From assembly GCA_016188475.1 (NCBI GenBank), contig JACPHT010000008.1, forward strand, positions 150,192 through 214,191: DNA of 64,000 nt, read 5' to 3'. Numbering within the stretch: position 1 is the stretch's first letter; every line of letters starts with the position of its first letter. The notes beneath the pieces were generated by a model, which made no database searches, was not told the origin of the DNA, and was given only the letters and a program-made list of their open reading frames with translations. This stretch comes from Candidatus Uhrbacteria bacterium. GTDB lineage: Bacteria; Patescibacteriota; Patescibacteriia; UBA9934; GWF2-40-263. Made by a program: the position numbers and the translations under genes. Positions 18,963 to 25,290 of the stretch are shown one piece after another.

Positions 18963-19619
18963 ATGTCCGTTCTCACTCGACACGAAATCCTTAAAGCAAT
19001 TTCCTCTGGCGATATTCATTTCACGCCGGAGATTGATAAATTCCAACTGCAACCGCACGCGGTTGATTTGCGGCTTGGATACAAATTTTTAATTCCACGC
19101 AATTGGACAGTTGATGAAAAAGGACGTCGCGCAATCAAAGTCGCGATAGACGACGCGAGCACACATCAGGAACAGTTTGATGAGGTTCAACTTAAAGACG
19201 GACAATATTTTGATCTGCTTCCGAATGAATTTGTAATTGGAACATCACTTGAACGAATCGAAATCAACGCAATGAACCTCATGGCTGTTTTATTTCCTCG
19301 AACTTCAACAAACCGTCGTGGAATTGATCTGTCTCTTTCAGGAATAATTGATACTGGTTACAAAGGCAATCTTATTTTTCCAATGCAAAACGAGGCTGGA
19401 GATCAAGTCATTCGTATTTATCCTGGCGAACGTGTTTGCCAAGTTATTTTTCAAGAATTAAACATGTCTCTAACTCCTGAAGAAGCAAACATGCACGGGA
19501 TAACAGCTTCAAAATATACAGACTCAAATTCACAAAATTTCGTTTTGGATAAAGAAGAAGAACGTCAATTTTTAACATCAGGAAAATTGGAAGAATTGAA
19601 AAAGAAATTTGAGATATAA
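18963..19619 (+). CDS. dcd: dCTP deaminase (dUTPase superfamily), standard size
   Basis: HAVDLRLGYKF...GIIDTGYKGNLIF pattern. Confidence 0.7.
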   Translation: MSVLTRHEILKAISSGDIHFTPEIDKFQLQPHAVDLRLGYKFLIPRNWTVDEKGRRAIKVAIDDASTHQEQFDEVQLKDGQYFDLLPNEFVIGTSLERIEINAMNLMAVLFPRTSTNRRGIDLSLSGIIDTGYKGNLIFPMQNEAGDQVIRIYPGERVCQVIFQELNMSLTPEEANMHGITASKYTDSNSQNFVLDKEEERQFLTSGKLEELKKKFEI

Positions 19620-19642: not shown

Positions 19643-20098
19643 TCAAGCTCCGTAAGAACTGGTTTCAAGGTCGAGACATTCGAGTTTTTGTCTGCACAAG
19701 CCGCAAGTTTCGAGGTGCTCGAACGCGCGATCCAGAAATCCAAGATTTTCTGGATTTTCAGACATAGTGACTCTGCACTCACGTTTCTCGTCGTCAAAGA
19801 CGGCTTGAAACTGAAAGTATGGAACATACAAATGGTATGCAAGCGAACAATCCACACAAAGACGACCGTCCCAAACGATCCATTGTTTTCTGCCTTCTAT
19901 ATGATGCATATGACGTGGATCGATCGAAGCCATAATCGGCAAACGTCCTCGATCAGGAACCAACAAAGTGAAACGGATACTGTACAGTTGCGTTCGACAC
20001 TCGAAGTTGTGTATTAGGTCCAAATTCCTAGACTTGAGCCTTATCGGGCATGCCGGGACATTTTCCCAGAACCGAATGTGTTGAGTTGAAAAAGTCAT
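19643..20098 (-). CDS. hypothetical protein; third gene of a GC-rich 3-gene cassette
   Basis: ORF, co-oriented with and tightly spaced to its neighbours. Confidence 0.35.
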   Translation of the reverse strand: MTFSTQHIRFWENVPACPIRLKSRNLDLIHNFECRTQLYSIRFTLLVPDRGRLPIMASIDPRHMHHIEGRKQWIVWDGRLCVDCSLAYHLYVPYFQFQAVFDDEKRECRVTMSENPENLGFLDRAFEHLETCGLCRQKLECLDLETSSYGA

Positions 20099-20113
20099 CT
20101 ACCTTTCCTCACT

Positions 20114-20566
20114 TTACTCGTCTACTTCGACGAGCCAGCGCCAGTTGTTATTGAATCCGCCTTCTGACAAGTCAAAAAATGGAACGCAGGTCTGTCCACT
20201 GTCAGCCCGAATGCACGGAAACAGGAAATAGCTGTACTGATCCCTCCATGAATCATCAGCGATTCCGACTGTTCCACCGCCATCAGCACTCTGGAACTTT
20301 GTGATCAATACCTCACGCCATTGACCTTCTGGAATTTTGCCGTGTTCTTTTAGAATTGCTACGACCGTACTGAAATGATCGCAACATCCAATTGTAATGA
20401 GCTTGAAACGGCGCGTTTGAACGCCTTTCACGAGTTTGCCTCTGTGTCGCCATTTCTCAAACCCGACTTCCCCGCTCCTATGAACCATTTCTATCGGGTC
20501 GTTATCTGGAGCGCTTCCGTCAAGTGTAAGTTCAAAGACCTCACCAAGAGCTGGAAAACATGCCAT
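20114..20566 (-). CDS. hypothetical protein; second gene of the GC-rich cassette
   Basis: ORF. Confidence 0.35.
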   Translation of the reverse strand: MACFPALGEVFELTLDGSAPDNDPIEMVHRSGEVGFEKWRHRGKLVKGVQTRRFKLITIGCCDHFSTVVAILKEHGKIPEGQWREVLITKFQSADGGGTVGIADDSWRDQYSYFLFPCIRADSGQTCVPFFDLSEGGFNNNWRWLVEVDE

Positions 20567-20674
20567 GAGTCATTTCCCTTTAACTCACTGCTTGATTGCA
20601 GCTTTCAAAAGACGTTCTTGCCATCTTCTCAAAGCCACGATAAAACCAATAAAAGAAGCCAAAAGATTACTTGA

Positions 20675-21046
20675 TTATGACGAATCTGTCAATGTTGGCT
20701 TGACAAAAACAAGATCATCACTCGCACCAAACGTGAGGCCGGATCTGGAATCAATCCGATCAAAATTTCGAGCAACGAGTGGGCAGTAATGCTCAAATTC
20801 ACATTCGCCTTGTGGCTCGACTCCGCTGAAGGACAGAAGTACACGACGGTCGGAGATTCCAACCGACACCTCGACAATGGCCAGATCGGAACAATAAATG
20901 GCGTCCCGGTCATTGTCGTCCCAAATCTTGAGGATCGTCTGCCAACCCCACCATCTGGTGTTAGGTAGCCGTTCTTTCTCCACCCATGTCCGACTAGGGC
21001 GTGGGTGCTTTTTATTTTCGATAAAAAAACTTAATTCATATTTCAC
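20675..21046 (-). CDS. hypothetical protein; first gene of the GC-rich cassette
   Basis: ORF. Confidence 0.35.
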   Translation of the reverse strand: MKYELSFFIENKKHPRPSRTWVEKERLPNTRWWGWQTILKIWDDNDRDAIYCSDLAIVEVSVGISDRRVLLSFSGVEPQGECEFEHYCPLVARNFDRIDSRSGLTFGASDDLVFVKPTLTDSS

Positions 21047-21086: not shown

Positions 21087-21662
21087 ATGTCTAAAAACAT
21101 CTCTTCAAATTCTGTTCCATCTAGAATCTTCGATGTGCTCTTATCAGAAGCCGATGATCTTCTATTTTTATTTCATCATCCTCATGCAGTGTTACGAACA
21201 GTAGGAAATATTGAATCTGCACGTAACATGCTCGCACGAAAAGAACGAAATCTTCAACGAATTAAAAAAACAGAAATCAACCAGGCCTTGCAACGACTCA
21301 ATTCGCAAAAATTACTGCGGATAAGTAAAAAGGGTAATGAAATTTACTTCTTTTTGACTGAAAATGGCATAAAAGAGGGTTTGAAACGTACAATTCAAAA
21401 GAAGAAACAACGTCTTGCAGGCAAACGACGTTGTTACGTGAGTTTTGATATTCCTGAACAAGCAAGTTCTACACGGTGGGCATTAAGAAAACTTTTGAAA
21501 GATTCACACTTCAAAATGATTCATCTTAGTTTATGGAGTTCTGAATTCGACGTTGGAAAAGAAATGGCGGCGTTGATAAAAATAATGAGAGCCGAAACAT
21601 GGGTACACGTTTTCGAAGCAAGGGCTCTAACTTCCATTAACAAAAAAAGCAAAAACTCGTAA
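21087..21662 (+). CDS. hypothetical protein: an N-terminal winged-HTH-like region plus a C-terminal region with a Cas2/VapD-like sequence pattern
   Basis: C-terminal RRCYVSFDIPEQASSTRWALRKLLKDSHFKMIHLSLWSS resembles the Cas2 beta1-alpha1-beta2 core (YD[IV]...R.LRK.L...G.R.Q.SVFEC). It is flanked on both sides by the 38-bp palindrome. There is no cas1 or CRISPR array nearby. Confidence 0.45.
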   Translation: MSKNISSNSVPSRIFDVLLSEADDLLFLFHHPHAVLRTVGNIESARNMLARKERNLQRIKKTEINQALQRLNSQKLLRISKKGNEIYFFLTENGIKEGLKRTIQKKKQRLAGKRRCYVSFDIPEQASSTRWALRKLLKDSHFKMIHLSLWSSEFDVGKEMAALIKIMRAETWVHVFEARALTSINKKSKNS

Positions 21663-21693
21663 TCACACTTAACTCCCGATCGGGAGTTAAGTG
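21661..21693. repeat. Palindromic element, copy B (AATCACACTTAACTCCCGATCGGGAGTTAAGTG), between convergent gene ends
   Basis: Perfect palindrome seen directly. Confidence 0.7.
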
Positions 21694-21694
21694 T

Positions 21695-22609
21695 TTACAG
21701 TTGTCTCAAAACGTTCTTCAACATACGACATGCTTCTTCTGTGGTTTCGTATTTGATGTGATAAACAATTGCTGGATTTCCAAGCGCAAAATTTGAAATC
21801 ACTGAATCTTTTTTTGAAATAAGCACGATTGGTTTTTCAAACATGTAAGCGAGAACGAGTTCGCCACCAGCTCCCAAAGATGGATTTGAAACATCAGCTA
21901 TGAGCACATCACAATTTTTGATTTTATTTTCAGTCCAATCATAAACCGCGCGAACGTCACGCTCTTCGCGTGGTTTTTTATTTTCAGGATTATCACGAAA
22001 TGGAATTATTGGTTCACAACCTAATTCATCACACACACGACCAAGCGCTTCGTGAACAACTTTATCATCAGCCAAACCATTATTGTTTGTATACGATCCA
22101 GCTATGTAGGCTGATTTTACAGTTGGTTTAAGTGTTTTTGAATACACTCTATCGCGATTAAACTCAACATGTGCGTTTGCTAGTAAATACACATTGCGAA
22201 TTCCATTTTCAATCATCACGTTCCAACATTGCTCGCAACACCACCAATGGCCGTACAAATAAATATCCGATCCTGACGGATCAATTCCCGACTCATTTGC
22301 AACAGCAATTACCATTTGTTCTGCATGTCCTGGAGCGTCGTGTAAATGACACAAATCATATCCTGTTCCACTAGGACACTCCAACACAACTCGAGGACAA
22401 ACATGTCTCGTGCCAGAACCTTTATTAAACCCATTTCCGGCTCGAGTGAAAATTTTTCCGTCTCTAACTAACACTGCTCCAACTGGATACAACCTGTCGC
22501 CTGCACAATCCTCGCGTGCGCGCGCCGCTTCTTGCATGAATGGATCGTCCGCACTGACAAAATAAAAAACTTTTCCATCAGGCAAAAATGGATACTCTAT
22601 TTCTGGCAT
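21695..22609 (-). CDS. Fusion protein: dCMP (cytidine/deoxycytidylate) deaminase domain plus a nucleoside 2-deoxyribosyltransferase-like (Rcl/DNPH1-like) domain
   Basis: Zinc motifs HAEQMVI and PCxxC-type WWCCEQC in the N-terminal half. The C-terminal half has AYIAGSY...SLGAGGELVLAYMFEKPIVLI, matching the NDT-family Rossmann signature. Confidence 0.65.
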   Translation of the reverse strand: MPEIEYPFLPDGKVFYFVSADDPFMQEAARAREDCAGDRLYPVGAVLVRDGKIFTRAGNGFNKGSGTRHVCPRVVLECPSGTGYDLCHLHDAPGHAEQMVIAVANESGIDPSGSDIYLYGHWWCCEQCWNVMIENGIRNVYLLANAHVEFNRDRVYSKTLKPTVKSAYIAGSYTNNNGLADDKVVHEALGRVCDELGCEPIIPFRDNPENKKPREERDVRAVYDWTENKIKNCDVLIADVSNPSLGAGGELVLAYMFEKPIVLISKKDSVISNFALGNPAIVYHIKYETTEEACRMLKNVLRQL

Positions 22610-23117
22610 AAAAAATGTAGCAAAACTGCTTGATCACCAAGTTGAGTAACTTCATCCAATTTCAAATTTATTCTTCCAAATCCTGACGCAAGTGGCACGC
22701 CATCGCCAAACAAAACCGGCTCAACTGTAAGATAAATTTCGGTAACAAGCTTCTCTTTCAGAAACTGACTGTAAATTGACGACCCACCTGCGATCACAAC
22801 ATTTTCAACACCTTCTTTTTGCAAACGTTCAAGTAGTTTGCACGGTTGTTCGCTCGTAAATTCAACCTTCCCGCTTTCTTCCTTTGTCTCCAGCTGTCTT
22901 CCATTGTCCTCCCTTGTCATCACTATCGTCTTCCTCCCCTTCAACGGCTTTCCAATTGTCTCAAAAGTCTTTCGACCCATAATCAAAACTCCTATCTCTT
23001 TTGTTTTTTCAATAAAAAAACGCAAATCTTCTTTCGATGTCCAATCAAGTGACGTCTGACATTCATGCTCTGCTATTTTTCCGTTTGCAGAAATCGCGGC
23101 AAGTAAAATAATTTTCA
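22597..23117 (-). CDS. dihydrofolate reductase-like (RibD C-terminal/DHFR family)
   Basis: MKIILLAAISANGKI...IAGGSSIYSQFL...VTEIYLTVEPVLFGDG. Confidence 0.65.
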
Positions 23118-23161
23118 TAAAGATATTCTTCGTCGCTTCGCTCCTCAGAATGACGAAAAGA

Positions 23162-23996
23162 CTAATAAACATTCACCGTGATCTCCATTCCACTAATCGA
23201 CTCAAGTGGTTGATACTGTGATTTAAGCGAGGTAAAAATTTCGTTCACAAGTTCTAAATCTCCGTTCATGGCGCGCTCGTAACTTCCAACAGGAACTCTC
23301 AAAGAAACAGGTCCATGATCATTCGTGCGGGAAATAAGTTCGCGTGCCGCAGTGAAATGATTGTCGTAAATATGCGCGTTACTGATCGAATGCGTGTAAA
23401 TTCCTGGTTGAACTTCAAGCCTGTCCGCCAAAATACATTGCAAAAGCGCAAATCCAGCCGCGTCATGAGGACATCCAAGCATCATGTCATTGCTTCTGAT
23501 AATATTGTGCAAATGCAATTTTCCACCAGCGATGTTTACAGTAAATGTATATGGACATGGGAGATTTTTCTTTGAATCAACACCGAGTCCGTCATCAGCC
23601 GGATCCCATGTGATCACAACCGCATGTCGAGAATGCGGATTTTGTGTGAGATGATTTACAAGACAATCAATTTGATCGCGTCCGAAATGATGACGCCAAC
23701 GATGGCCATACGCGGCTTTTACTGTTCCGTCTTCTTCCAAAAAATCATCCCAAATTTTTGTAAACTGTTGAAGCCAAGTTGGATTGTTCTGTCCCATCAA
23801 ATACCAAATTTGTTCAGCAATAAAAATCTTAAGAGGAATCTTTCGCAAAGTGAGAAGCGGAAAACTTTCCTGAACATCAACGCGCAACGTGACTCCAGGC
23901 AACATTCTCGTTATGCGGCCAGACCATGGATTTGGAATTTCATATCCATTTTCCATGATGTCGGAAATTGCGCTTTTGTATTGAACATCAAATGGG
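23162..23996 (-). CDS. thyA: thymidylate synthase ThyA family
   Basis: Catalytic-Cys region LPCPYTFTVNIAGGKLHLHNIIRSNDMMLGCPHDAAGFALL. The track's N-terminal extension (FPHFRPFGPF) is encoded by a 9-bp repeat copy and is probably 5' UTR. Confidence 0.8.
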
Positions 23997-24006
23997 GTCA
24001 TATTGT

Positions 24007-24126: not shown

Positions 24127-24561
24127 ATGATTTTACCTGTGGAAATCTTCAAATGCCATCCTGACGCTGTTATTCCGGTCTATTATTCAACTGGCGCTTG
24201 CGCTTTTGATTTGTCCACAATCGAAGACGTTATTATCCAACCTGGCGAAATAGTACGCTTACGCACAGGCCTTGTAATATGTGTCCCTGAAAATTATGTA
24301 ATGATTGTTGTCGCACGATCGTCATTGCCAAAAAAATACGGTCTGTGTTTTCCACAAGGCATAGGAATAGTTGACAATGACTATTGCGGACCAACGGATG
24401 AAGCTCAACTGCAGTTACTTAATTTTACAGATCAACCAGTGGAAATTAGAAAAGGTGATAGACTCGCGCAAGCAATGCTTGTCCCGTTTGCTAAAGCTGA
24501 ATTTAAGGAAGTTATAAAACTGACAAATCCAAACCGCGGAGGCTTTGGTTCAACAGGTTAA
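24127..24561 (+). CDS. dut: dUTP diphosphatase
   Basis: Motifs ARSSLPKKYG, GIVDNDYCG, GDRLAQAMLVP, RGGFGSTG. Confidence 0.85.
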   Translation: MILPVEIFKCHPDAVIPVYYSTGACAFDLSTIEDVIIQPGEIVRLRTGLVICVPENYVMIVVARSSLPKKYGLCFPQGIGIVDNDYCGPTDEAQLQLLNFTDQPVEIRKGDRLAQAMLVPFAKAEFKEVIKLTNPNRGGFGSTG

Positions 24562-24576
24562 TCTGCTATAATTATT

Positions 24577-25290
24577 ATGACATTAGGACGATTCATTATG
24601 ATTGACGGAATCGCCGGCAGTGGCAAATCCACTGTTTTGCGTGCTGTCCAAACTTGGGCAGAATCTTGTCATCACAAAATCTTTCGTCTTTCACAATGGG
24701 AAGATGTTGAACCACCAAAGTTTGAACAAATCTCAAACTACGATGTTTATTTCACATACGAGCCAACACGCACTTGGATTGGTCGCGCGATAAGATACGA
24801 ACTTTCAAGAGAAGATAAGCCATACGATGGCGAGACGCTGGCACACGCATTCGCGCTTGATCGACAAATAATGTACAGGCGTTTAATAATACCTGCGATA
24901 AAAGCTGGAAAAACAATCATTCAAGATCGCGGAGTTTCAACTTCGCTTGTGTATCAGCCAATCATGCAAAACAGTTTGCCTCTTGAAACTGTAAAAAATC
25001 TCCCAGGAAACAAACTTTCTTTGGAATACGCGCCTAACGCTCTGATTCTAACAAAACTTTCTGCTGAAACAGCGGCTGAACGAATTGCGAAGCGAGACGA
25101 CGATTCAAAAGGTGTTTTTGGACAATTAGAATTTCTCAAAATACTAGAACAAAGATTTGAAGAACGGTGGCTAAAAGAATTGTTTGAATCACATGGAACT
25201 CACATATATTCACTTGACATGTCGGGAACCATTGAAGAAACTTCAGATCGGGCACAAAAACTCATTACAATAATTCTCTCTACATGTTAA
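24577..25290 (+). CDS. tmk: thymidylate (dNMP) kinase-like P-loop kinase
   Basis: IDGIAGSGKST P-loop; FTYEPT and DRGVSTSLVYQ resemble the Tmk motifs. Confidence 0.65.
   Translation: MTLGRFIMIDGIAGSGKSTVLRAVQTWAESCHHKIFRLSQWEDVEPPKFEQISNYDVYFTYEPTRTWIGRAIRYELSREDKPYDGETLAHAFALDRQIMYRRLIIPAIKAGKTIIQDRGVSTSLVYQPIMQNSLPLETVKNLPGNKLSLEYAPNALILTKLSAETAAERIAKRDDDSKGVFGQLEFLKILEQRFEERWLKELFESHGTHIYSLDMSGTIEETSDRAQKLITIILSTC

Follow-up and report, generated by a model that had tools for sequence, protein, structure and literature searches.

The 64,000 nt stretch of a Candidatus Uhrbacteria bacterium contig analysed here (JACPHT010000008.1, positions 150,192 to 214,191; hereafter the window) carries on its reverse strand, at 21695..22609, a gene in which a zinc deaminase is fused to a domain of the nucleoside 2-deoxyribosyltransferase (NDT) superfamily. 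The gene is a single ATG-initiated open reading frame (ORF) of 304 aa plus the stop codon, without an internal stop. Both halves are recognised by Pfam, the first as dCMP_cyt_deam_1 (PF00383; 44.5 bits over residues 21-143, gathering score 25) and the second as Nuc_deoxyrib_tr (PF05014; 36.2 bits over residues 168-269, gathering score 28.8). The N-terminal domain (residues 1-160; 22130..22609, reverse strand) is a CDA-fold zinc deaminase of a 'GHWW' subfamily of dCMP deaminases, and the C-terminal domain (residues 160-304; 21698..22132, reverse strand) is a DNPH1/MilB-like member of the NDT superfamily. The AlphaFold2 model of the fusion, made with 69 homologues, is confident along the whole chain (pLDDT 94.3, pTM 0.87) and has two α/β domains on one chain with the junction at about residue 160. 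The single-chain fusion of a deaminase with an NDT/Rcl-like domain that a preliminary description of this gene had proposed is therefore present as one ORF, with both Pfam domains and one structural model; the motifs quoted there, HAE, WWCCEQC and AYIAGSY, are all located in the protein and their codons have been verified.

An identical 304 aa protein is found in two independent assemblies (SRR12113419 and SRR12113422). The same architecture, when sought in the databases, was found in more than 60 two-domain full-length homologues. In the closest named Uhrbacteria metagenome-assembled genome (MAG; GCA_016208545.1, locus L007:5646-6522, which is the same as L035) the fusion is present as two overlapping ORFs of 120 aa and 173 aa, the second of which is named 'nucleoside 2-deoxyribosyltransferase' by NCBI. 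This split is probably an assembly frameshift, or else an error or pseudogene in that MAG.

The fusion gene closes a translationally coupled set whose order, ThyA homologue, dihydrofolate reductase (DHFR), fusion, is the same in the window and at all related loci. Stop and start codons within the set overlap by 13 nt in the window and by 4 nt elsewhere. The ThyA-family gene (279 aa; PF00303, 2e-54) lies at 23162..24001 and the DHFR-family gene (PF00186, 9e-21; PF01872, 1e-17) at 22597..23118, both on the reverse strand; it is the stop of the DHFR gene that overlaps the fusion start codon by the 13 nt. The set adjoins genes for a dUTPase, a thymidylate kinase and a dCTP-deaminase-like (DCD) protein, as well as the secE-nusG-rplK-rplA cluster. 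The dUTPase gene, at 24127..24561 (PF00692, 2.9e-20), is divergent from the operon, and the thymidylate kinase gene is at 24577..25290 (PF02223, 1.3e-22), both on the forward strand. The DCD gene at 18963..19619, also on the forward strand, matches PF22769 (1.6e-26) and scores 91.2 bits with TIGR02274, just under the cut-off of 92.8.

The zinc site of the deaminase half is complete. The zinc-ligand His and the catalytic Glu are in H95-A96-E97 (22319..22327) and the zinc-ligand Cys residues in C125-E-Q-C128 (22226..22237), which is the equivalent of PCxxC and here reads CCEQC within 'GHWWCCEQCW'. The codons of both motifs, on the reverse strand, have been verified, and all of 69 aligned sequences have H95, E97, C125 and C128. 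The mark of the subfamily is 'GHWW[AC]CEPCW', and there is a Cys-rich insert ahead of HAE that aligns to the dCMP-deaminase segment. A profile search of the PDB found the dCMP deaminase 2hvv at 2e-7, and structure comparison gave 12.8 for 2hvv (S. mutans dCD), 11.6 for cyanophage S-TIM5 dCD, 11.5 for T4 Cd and 11.1 for TadA. The solved structures nearest to this domain are therefore dCMP deaminases, not tRNA, cytidine or guanine deaminases. As these are its nearest structures, the N-terminal half is judged to be a dCMP-type zinc deaminase, with a catalytic site that is intact by sequence and fold.

In profile searches the best PDB match of the C-terminal domain was human DNPH1 (E-value 2.5e-9), followed by BcmB (8e-7), BlsM (8e-6), MilB (1e-4) and a true NDT (7m5h; 4e-3), and its identity to DNPH1 in Foldseek alignments is about 20-24%. 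The preliminary description had raised the possibility that this region fails to match NDT/DNPH1 profiles; with PF05014 above gathering and the DNPH1 profile match, it does not. Its placing of the domain in the NDT/DNPH1 family is thus upheld, and can be refined to a DNPH1/MilB-like domain that is predicted to act on nucleotides.

The roles of the DNPH1 active site residues (PMC10603095, PMC10483697) were mapped onto the family alignment. Y168 (22106..22108, reverse strand), within the AYIAGSY that starts at residue 167, is the equivalent of DNPH1 Tyr24, a member of the catalytic triad, and is Tyr in 63 and Phe in 5 of 68 sequences. A Tyr at this position selects 2'-deoxyribose, whereas Phe is found in MilB and BcmB, whose preference is for ribonucleotides (PMC10603095). 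The segment P243-S-L-G-A-G-G-E250 (21860..21883, reverse strand) aligns to PSLGVGYE of DNPH1, where S98 and E104 correspond to the predicted phosphate-binding Ser244 and the predicted nucleophile Glu250. Ser244 is present in 67 of the 68 sequences. Glu250 is invariant (68/68, and likewise in the 69-sequence alignment), being one of only three invariant residues in this domain. S272 (21794..21796, reverse strand; 62/68), in a 'vSrf' that aligns to 'LSAM' of DNPH1, is the equivalent of Ser128', the phosphate binder that is given in trans by the dimer partner.

With Tyr168 at the deoxyribose position and two phosphate serines, the C-terminal domain is predicted to bind a 2'-deoxynucleoside 5'-monophosphate (dNMP), as DNPH1 does, and to be neither a nucleoside transferase nor a CMP glycosidase. 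Ser244, six residues before the nucleophile, and Ser272, in the trans helix, are at the positions of Asp92 and Asn123 in the L. leichmannii NDT, which bind the nucleoside 5'-OH. A true nucleoside NDT was rejected on this Ser/Ser phosphate signature in place of Asp/Asn, and the nucleoside deoxyribosyl transfer that had been put forward in the preliminary description is disfavoured for the same reason. Likewise, a MilB-type ribonucleotide glycosidase was rejected on the presence of Tyr168 and the lack of an Arg23 equivalent at 174/175.

The catalytic acid is less conserved. The preliminary description had named the catalytic Glu/Asp as the residues to look for; the Glu is present and invariant, but the position of the DNPH1 general acid Asp80 is occupied, in the profile alignment, by Thr226 (21932..21934, reverse strand). 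Across the 68 sequences this column has 21 Asp, 14 Ala, 13 Ser, 11 Thr and 6 Gly. In the 'helical element', the E55/H56 region of DNPH1, the window protein has F204-R205-D206 (21992..22000, reverse strand), with Phe204 at the position of His56 (His in 48 of the 68) and Asp206 as a candidate relocated acid. In DNPH1 this element and Arg30 serve in base recognition and water activation. The region reads P203-F-R-D206 in the window protein and the Arg30 position is T174/N175, with a loop alignment that is uncertain by about 2 residues. Acids at 206 and 226 are nearly mutually exclusive in the 69 sequences: 35 have only that at 206, 21 only that at 226, one has both and 12 have neither. The presence of an acid at one or the other position in 57 of 69, and almost never at both, suggests a relocated catalytic acid, for which Asp206 would be a possible substitute in the window protein.

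Relatives were sought in one genome per species, across 185,579 species; 173 relatives were found and 80 loci were kept. Essentially all of these are Uhrbacteria or other Patescibacteria. The homologues in which conservation of the C-terminal domain was assessed have 43-86% overall identity to the window protein, and full-length fusions at 32-37% identity are found in Moraniibacteriota and other deep branches (L077, L080-L083). Many TPA_asm MAG records (L010, L012, L016, L020 and others) are titled 'uncultured Gammaproteobacteria bacterium' despite having Patescibacteria gene clusters, and these titles look mislabelled. There were no viral relatives of the fusion in a scan of IMG/VR and no PHROGs match for its C-terminal domain; with L1, GatB and tRNAs in the window, a phage origin was dropped.

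The state of the C-terminus was counted at the 74 species-level loci with a usable deaminase gene. A full NDT domain is present at 40 of these, 30 have a stub (total length 200-260 aa) and 4 have no extension. The stub form has lost the PSLGxGxE catalytic core and has kept the first strand and the last helix ('LRNVLRQL'). Stub carriers among the Uhrbacteria include L006, L045-L076 and others, for example P0088 (236 aa) and P0117 (207 aa). A rough neighbour-joining tree has only full-length forms on its deep branches, with stubs dispersed beside full-length sisters, and in some full/stub pairs the deaminase domains are 89-92% identical. This pattern indicates that the fusion is ancestral in this Patescibacteria deaminase family and that the catalytic core has been lost many times and recently. 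The architecture is unusual globally, yet it is the ancestral state of the whole Patescibacteria clade. On the alignment, the function of the NDT domain is real enough to hold the nucleophile Glu invariant wherever the domain is present.

The NDT-like domain is found mostly as a stand-alone protein of about 145 aa; 2,740 cluster representatives match it at E ≤ 1e-3, of which 684 do so at E ≤ 1e-10. These counts are from an exhaustive search of representatives; a word-indexed search with the C-terminal domain alone gave a single protein, P0074. Stand-alone relatives have the complete Y/D/E + S/S residue set, and the two that could be placed both adjoin pyrimidine genes. The gene order is DHFR, dCMP deaminase, DCD, ThyA, NDT-like gene in L089, and dCMP deaminase, NDT-like gene, DCD in L093/L094.

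Other fusions of the domain are with enzymes of the same kind. There is a reverse-order NDT-deaminase fusion (P0155, L090:98-979; 293 aa), two NDT-DCD fusions (P0221 and P0246; 401 and 410 aa), an NDT-thymidylate kinase fusion (P0257; 367 aa) and two triple fusions, DHFR-deaminase-NDT (P0068; 481 aa) and DCD-deaminase-NDT (L085:897-2531; 544 aa). In a Kerfeldbacteria MAG (GCA_016182525.1, L092:9569-11314) a 581 aa protein joins the NDT-like domain to a deaminase of the amidohydrolase superfamily, from the group of MTA/SAH/5'-deoxyadenosine/8-oxoguanine deaminases, which is non-homologous to the CDA fold. It fills the slot after a ThyA with the Asp described below and DHFR, where Uhrbacteria have the CDA-fold fusion. 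That deaminases without homology to each other occupy this slot, joined to the same domain, strongly indicates that a deaminase with a DNPH1-like domain is the unit under selection. All of the partners bear on the pool of deaminated pyrimidine deoxynucleotides (dUMP and 5-substituted dUMP).

The coupled ThyA homologue is also divergent. Positions of E. coli ThyA are counted here on what we take to be its reference sequence. In the window protein Asp180 (codon 23462-23464) is at the position of Asn177, and Pro150 (codon 23552-23554), beside Cys149, is at that of His147; the codons have been verified. The other catalytic residues of thymidylate synthase (TS) are kept (E58, W80, Y94, R126, C146, R166, D169, H207 and Y209 in E. 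coli numbering). The Asn to Asp column is shown independently by HMMER alignments to the PDB TS structures 6auj and 3ix6, that to 6auj reading 'gcphdaagf' against 'gvpfniasy'. All 60 ThyA genes linked to the deaminase family have the Asp and retain every other TS catalytic residue, and none has His147 (54 Pro, 6 Tyr). The Asp is likewise present in 120 of the 120 best ThyA homologues, and across linked genes and homologues together His147 is absent in all but one. The window ThyA passes TIGR03284 (127.6 against 108.35), and the public annotation of the homologues is 'thymidylate synthase' throughout.

Positions 177 and 147 are those that best separate cytosine-modifying enzymes from canonical TS (PMC8670742), and Asn177Asp is described there, and in work cited there, as turning TS into a dCMP methylase. 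In contrast, the ThyA of L089 is canonical (Asn177/His147), as is the ComEB-type deaminase with which it is paired. A deaminase of this canonical ComEB type is found in L093 too, with no ThyA seen on its short contig. The genome of the window keeps both the DCD-like gene and the dUTPase close to a ThyA of cytosine-type signature.

It is proposed, with about an even chance of being right, that the fusion is a bifunctional enzyme that would deaminate dCMP, or 5-substituted dCMP, for thymidylate supply and would hydrolyse an unwanted deaminated dNMP. The N-terminal domain would deaminate dCMP and/or 5-substituted dCMP, and so supply or finish the synthesis of dTMP together with the ThyA homologue and DHFR, which are translated along with it. 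The C-terminal domain would dimerise as DNPH1 does, since the conserved Ser272 is the trans-acting serine. Glu250 would then attack C1' of a 2'-deoxypyrimidine 5'-monophosphate, freeing the base and leaving a Glu250-deoxyribosyl-5-phosphate intermediate, and hydrolysis of this intermediate would give deoxyribose-5-phosphate, so that the end products would be this and the free base. The substrate of the glycosidase would most likely be a uracil-type product of the deaminase that is unfit for further phosphorylation, candidates being 5-hydroxymethyl-dUMP (hmdUMP), other aberrant 5-substituted dUMP and surplus dUMP. In humans DCTD deaminates 5-hydroxymethyl-dCMP to hmdUMP, which is hydrolysed by DNPH1 (PMC13184875), and DNPH1 in this way destroys hmdUMP before it can be phosphorylated and incorporated (PMC13184875, PMC10603095). 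The fusion may be the fused bacterial counterpart of this pool-sanitising DCTD→DNPH1 pair. Clearance of noncanonical dNMPs, which the preliminary description had offered as one use of the fusion, is the best-supported role, but as an activity it is a prediction.

Several points weigh against this proposal. In the deaminase half, the ComEB equivalog of NCBIfam (TIGR02571) is missed widely, at 22.5 bits with a cut-off of 219.45, which makes the deaminase a divergent subfamily of only predicted specificity. In the other half, the canonical DNPH1 catalytic triad is seen to be incomplete in the window protein, where the equivalents of Asp80 and His56 are Thr226 and Phe204, and the acid swap between 206 and 226 is a covariation inference only, confounded by phylogeny. 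Catalysis by this domain in the window protein is plausible, not assured. The base of its substrate is not readable from sequence. Furthermore, with the catalytic core lost repeatedly (30 stubs and 4 absences in 74), the function of the NDT domain would seem to be dispensable and the glycosidase half looks accessory.

A more specific form of the proposal follows from the neighbouring gene and is possible, though doubtful as a whole: that Uhrbacteria and related Patescibacteria depart from the textbook route through dUMP and make dTMP by the route dCMP to 5-methyl-dCMP to dTMP. ThyA would do the first step and the fusion deaminase (the amidohydrolase in Kerfeldbacteria) the second, with the DNPH1-like domain hydrolysing hydroxymethyl side-products or useless dUMP. 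Because the coupled ThyA has the cytosine-specific Asp177/non-His147 signature the deaminase may act on 5-methyl-dCMP, and because DHFR is coupled to ThyA a reductive methylation that produces dihydrofolate is favoured over hydroxymethylation. It counts against this route that DCD and dUTPase, the enzymes that make dUMP, are retained in these genomes, and that a protonated Asp could in principle still bind uracil. The conversion of dCMP to dUMP that the preliminary description had proposed may not be what the deaminase does, since the ThyA signature allows that 5-methyl-dCMP is its real substrate.

The alternative that survives best, although it is unlikely, is that the C-terminal domain is no glycosidase, and is instead a nucleotide-binding regulatory and/or oligomerisation module that senses a dNMP such as dTMP or dUMP or holds the oligomer together. 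Classical dCMP deaminases are under allosteric control by dCTP and dTTP. The absence of the Asp80 equivalent in the subclade of the window protein (T226) and the Phe at the position of His56 would fit such a module, as would the stubs, since the retention of the first strand and the 'LRNVLRQL' helix with loss of PSLGxGxE is what is expected if a structural role persists. However, a scaffold would not hold the Glu invariant, and the Tyr and serines near-invariant, among proteins at 43-86% identity. The acid at 206 or 226 also looks maintained, and the full Y/D/E + S/S set of the stand-alone relatives speaks for catalysis in the family.

It is less likely again that the domain is a natural phosphodeoxyribosyltransferase, which would exchange the base of a dNMP for another (dNMP + base' to dN'MP + base) and rebalance the pool in a scavenger, the deaminase supplying or removing one of the partners. 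NDTs have reportedly been engineered into phosphodeoxyribosyltransferases by Asp to Ser and Asn to Ser changes at the same two positions. The NDT fold, the covalent Glu nucleophile, the phosphate-binding serines and the reduced-genome Patescibacterium host are all compatible with such an exchange, but the nearest solved relatives by profile (DNPH1, BcmB, BlsM and MilB) are hydrolases, there is no sign in the sequence of water exclusion, and frequent domain loss speaks against a core role in salvage.

Very unlikely is an arrangement like that of MilA and MilB, in which the ThyA homologue would modify (d)CMP at C5, the C-terminal domain would free 5-methyl- or 5-hydroxymethyl-cytosine and the deaminase would act on the base or nucleotide, with a modified base rather than dTMP as the product. 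The Asp at the Asn177 position of ThyA, as in cytosine-specific members of that family, points this way, and so does the Kerfeldbacteria partner, an amidohydrolase of a group of base/nucleoside deaminases. However, Tyr168 in place of the Phe of MilB and BcmB argues for deoxyribose, and the Arg23 of MilB is unconserved, the family having T174/N175. The genes lie among housekeeping genes and adjoin those for thymidylate kinase, dUTPase and DCD, the coupling to DHFR implies reductive methylation, and many lineages drop the NDT core yet keep ThyA with the Asp, DHFR and the deaminase. Finally, a merging of two neighbouring genes through a sequencing or assembly frameshift, a possibility that the preliminary description had itself allowed for, is rejected as almost certainly wrong: it is favoured by the 120 aa and 173 aa ORFs of the one related MAG, but the gene in the window is in one frame without a stop, the same protein is in two independent assemblies, a single ORF is found in dozens of species and AlphaFold2 packs both domains confidently.

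Downstream of the fusion gene there is a perfect 30 nt palindrome, ACACTTAACTCCCGATCGGGAGTTAAGTGT, at 21665..21694, exactly between the convergent stops of the fusion gene and a PaaX-like gene; its self-complementarity has been verified. It is probably a bidirectional terminator hairpin, although a consensus terminator scan did not list it because it has no T-run. The PaaX-like gene (21087..21662, forward strand; 191 aa) matches only the central Cas2-like domain of PaaX (PF20803, 7e-10), and a similar gene also adjoins the fusion in the closest MAG (L007). Between the DCD and PaaX-like genes, on the reverse strand at 19643..21046, are three consecutive ORFs (151, 150 and 123 aa) with no Pfam match. 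The G+C content of this stretch is 0.474 as against about 0.40 in its flanks, and other genes are found here in related loci; it may be an insertion.

A literature search limited to the searchable library found no description of this deaminase-NDT fusion, and nothing on thymidylate synthase together with dCMP deaminase in Patescibacteria. Database annotation of the fusion proteins is piecemeal, as 'hypothetical', 'deaminase', 'deoxycytidylate deaminase' or 'DNPH1'. Both domains are of known kinds; what is new is the fusion, its conservation across the lineage and its recurrent partners. Together with the reverse-order form and those linked to DCD, thymidylate kinase, DHFR and amidohydrolase, the fusion can be read as Rosetta-stone evidence that DNPH1-type glycosidases act on the products of cytosine-nucleotide deamination. 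The link between a deaminase and DNPH1 had previously come from human cancer-cell genetics (DCTD→hmdUMP→DNPH1). Bacterial DNPH1-like proteins would gain a physiological setting, and the fusion would be a compact natural system for the study of substrate selection in the family of an anticancer drug target. There would be an obvious use for dNMP sanitising in a scavenging episymbiont that imports the breakdown products of foreign modified DNA, and likewise in an organism whose ThyA-type enzyme leaks hydroxymethyl side-products. Should this ThyA truly use dCMP, thymidylate would be made across a whole bacterial lineage by a previously undescribed methylate-then-deaminate route, which would change the annotation of thyA in metagenomes and the reconstruction of nucleotide metabolism in ultra-small symbionts. 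If neither reading is true, there remains a new and well-documented combination of domains from an uncultured phylum.

The systems with which the fusion can be compared are each similar to one part of it. Its N-terminal domain shares the HAE and CxxC zinc site with ComEB, S. mutans dCD (2HVW), T4 Cd and human DCTD, and it has in common with dCMP deaminases the Cys-rich insert before HAE and an operon setting with ThyA and DHFR. It differs from them as a divergent 'GHWW[AC]CEPCW' form, far under the ComEB cut-off, and in carrying a C-terminal NDT domain or stub. At the loci examined the ThyA linked to a fusion-type deaminase is always of the Asp177 type, and the canonical deaminases of L089 and L093 fall outside the GHWW subfamily. 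The ThyA itself shares the Asp at the Asn177 position and the lack of His147 with T4 dCMP hydroxymethylase (Asp179) and with N177D/N229D TS, a dCMP methylase. Unlike the phage cytosine-specific enzymes it is a chromosomal, housekeeping and lineage-wide enzyme with a DHFR and a deaminase coupled to it, and its substrate is a prediction from sequence.

The Lactobacillus NDT and PDT enzymes have the same fold as the C-terminal domain, the same Pfam family (PF05014), the covalent Glu nucleophile and the deoxyribose-selecting Tyr. They differ from it in the Asp92 and Asn123 that bind the 5'-OH, where Ser/Ser in the fusion leads to the prediction of 5'-phosphate binding, and its profile is nearer to the hydrolases. 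MilB, BcmB and BlsM act as (hydroxymethyl-)CMP N-glycosidases in the making of nucleoside antibiotics, where their partners are MilA and BcmA, CMP hydroxymethylases of the ThyA family. The likeness here is in the nucleotide 5'-monophosphate substrate, which is predicted for the fusion, and in the pairing with a member of the ThyA family whose Asn177 position is occupied by Asp. By the residues described in PMC10603095, the fusion differs from MilB and BcmB in having Tyr for the ribose-selecting Phe17 and in lacking the Arg23 of MilB, and it is part of a housekeeping dTMP operon (DHFR, Tmk, Dut and DCD) rather than an antibiotic cluster.

DNPH1/Rcl, the 2'-deoxynucleoside 5'-phosphate N-hydrolase for which hmdUMP is the physiological substrate, is the closest of these. 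It shares with the fusion its fold and the PSLGxGxE motif with the nucleophile Glu (E104 for E250), and its Tyr24, Ser98 and the trans-acting Ser128' correspond to Y168, S244 and S272. The fusion differs in having Thr226 for Asp80 (Asp in 21 of 68) and Phe204 for His56 (His in 48 of 68), in the lack of conservation of Arg30 in its family, and in being fused to a deaminase. Human DNPH1 works directly after the dCMP deaminase DCTD, and in the fusion both of these predicted activities would be on one chain.

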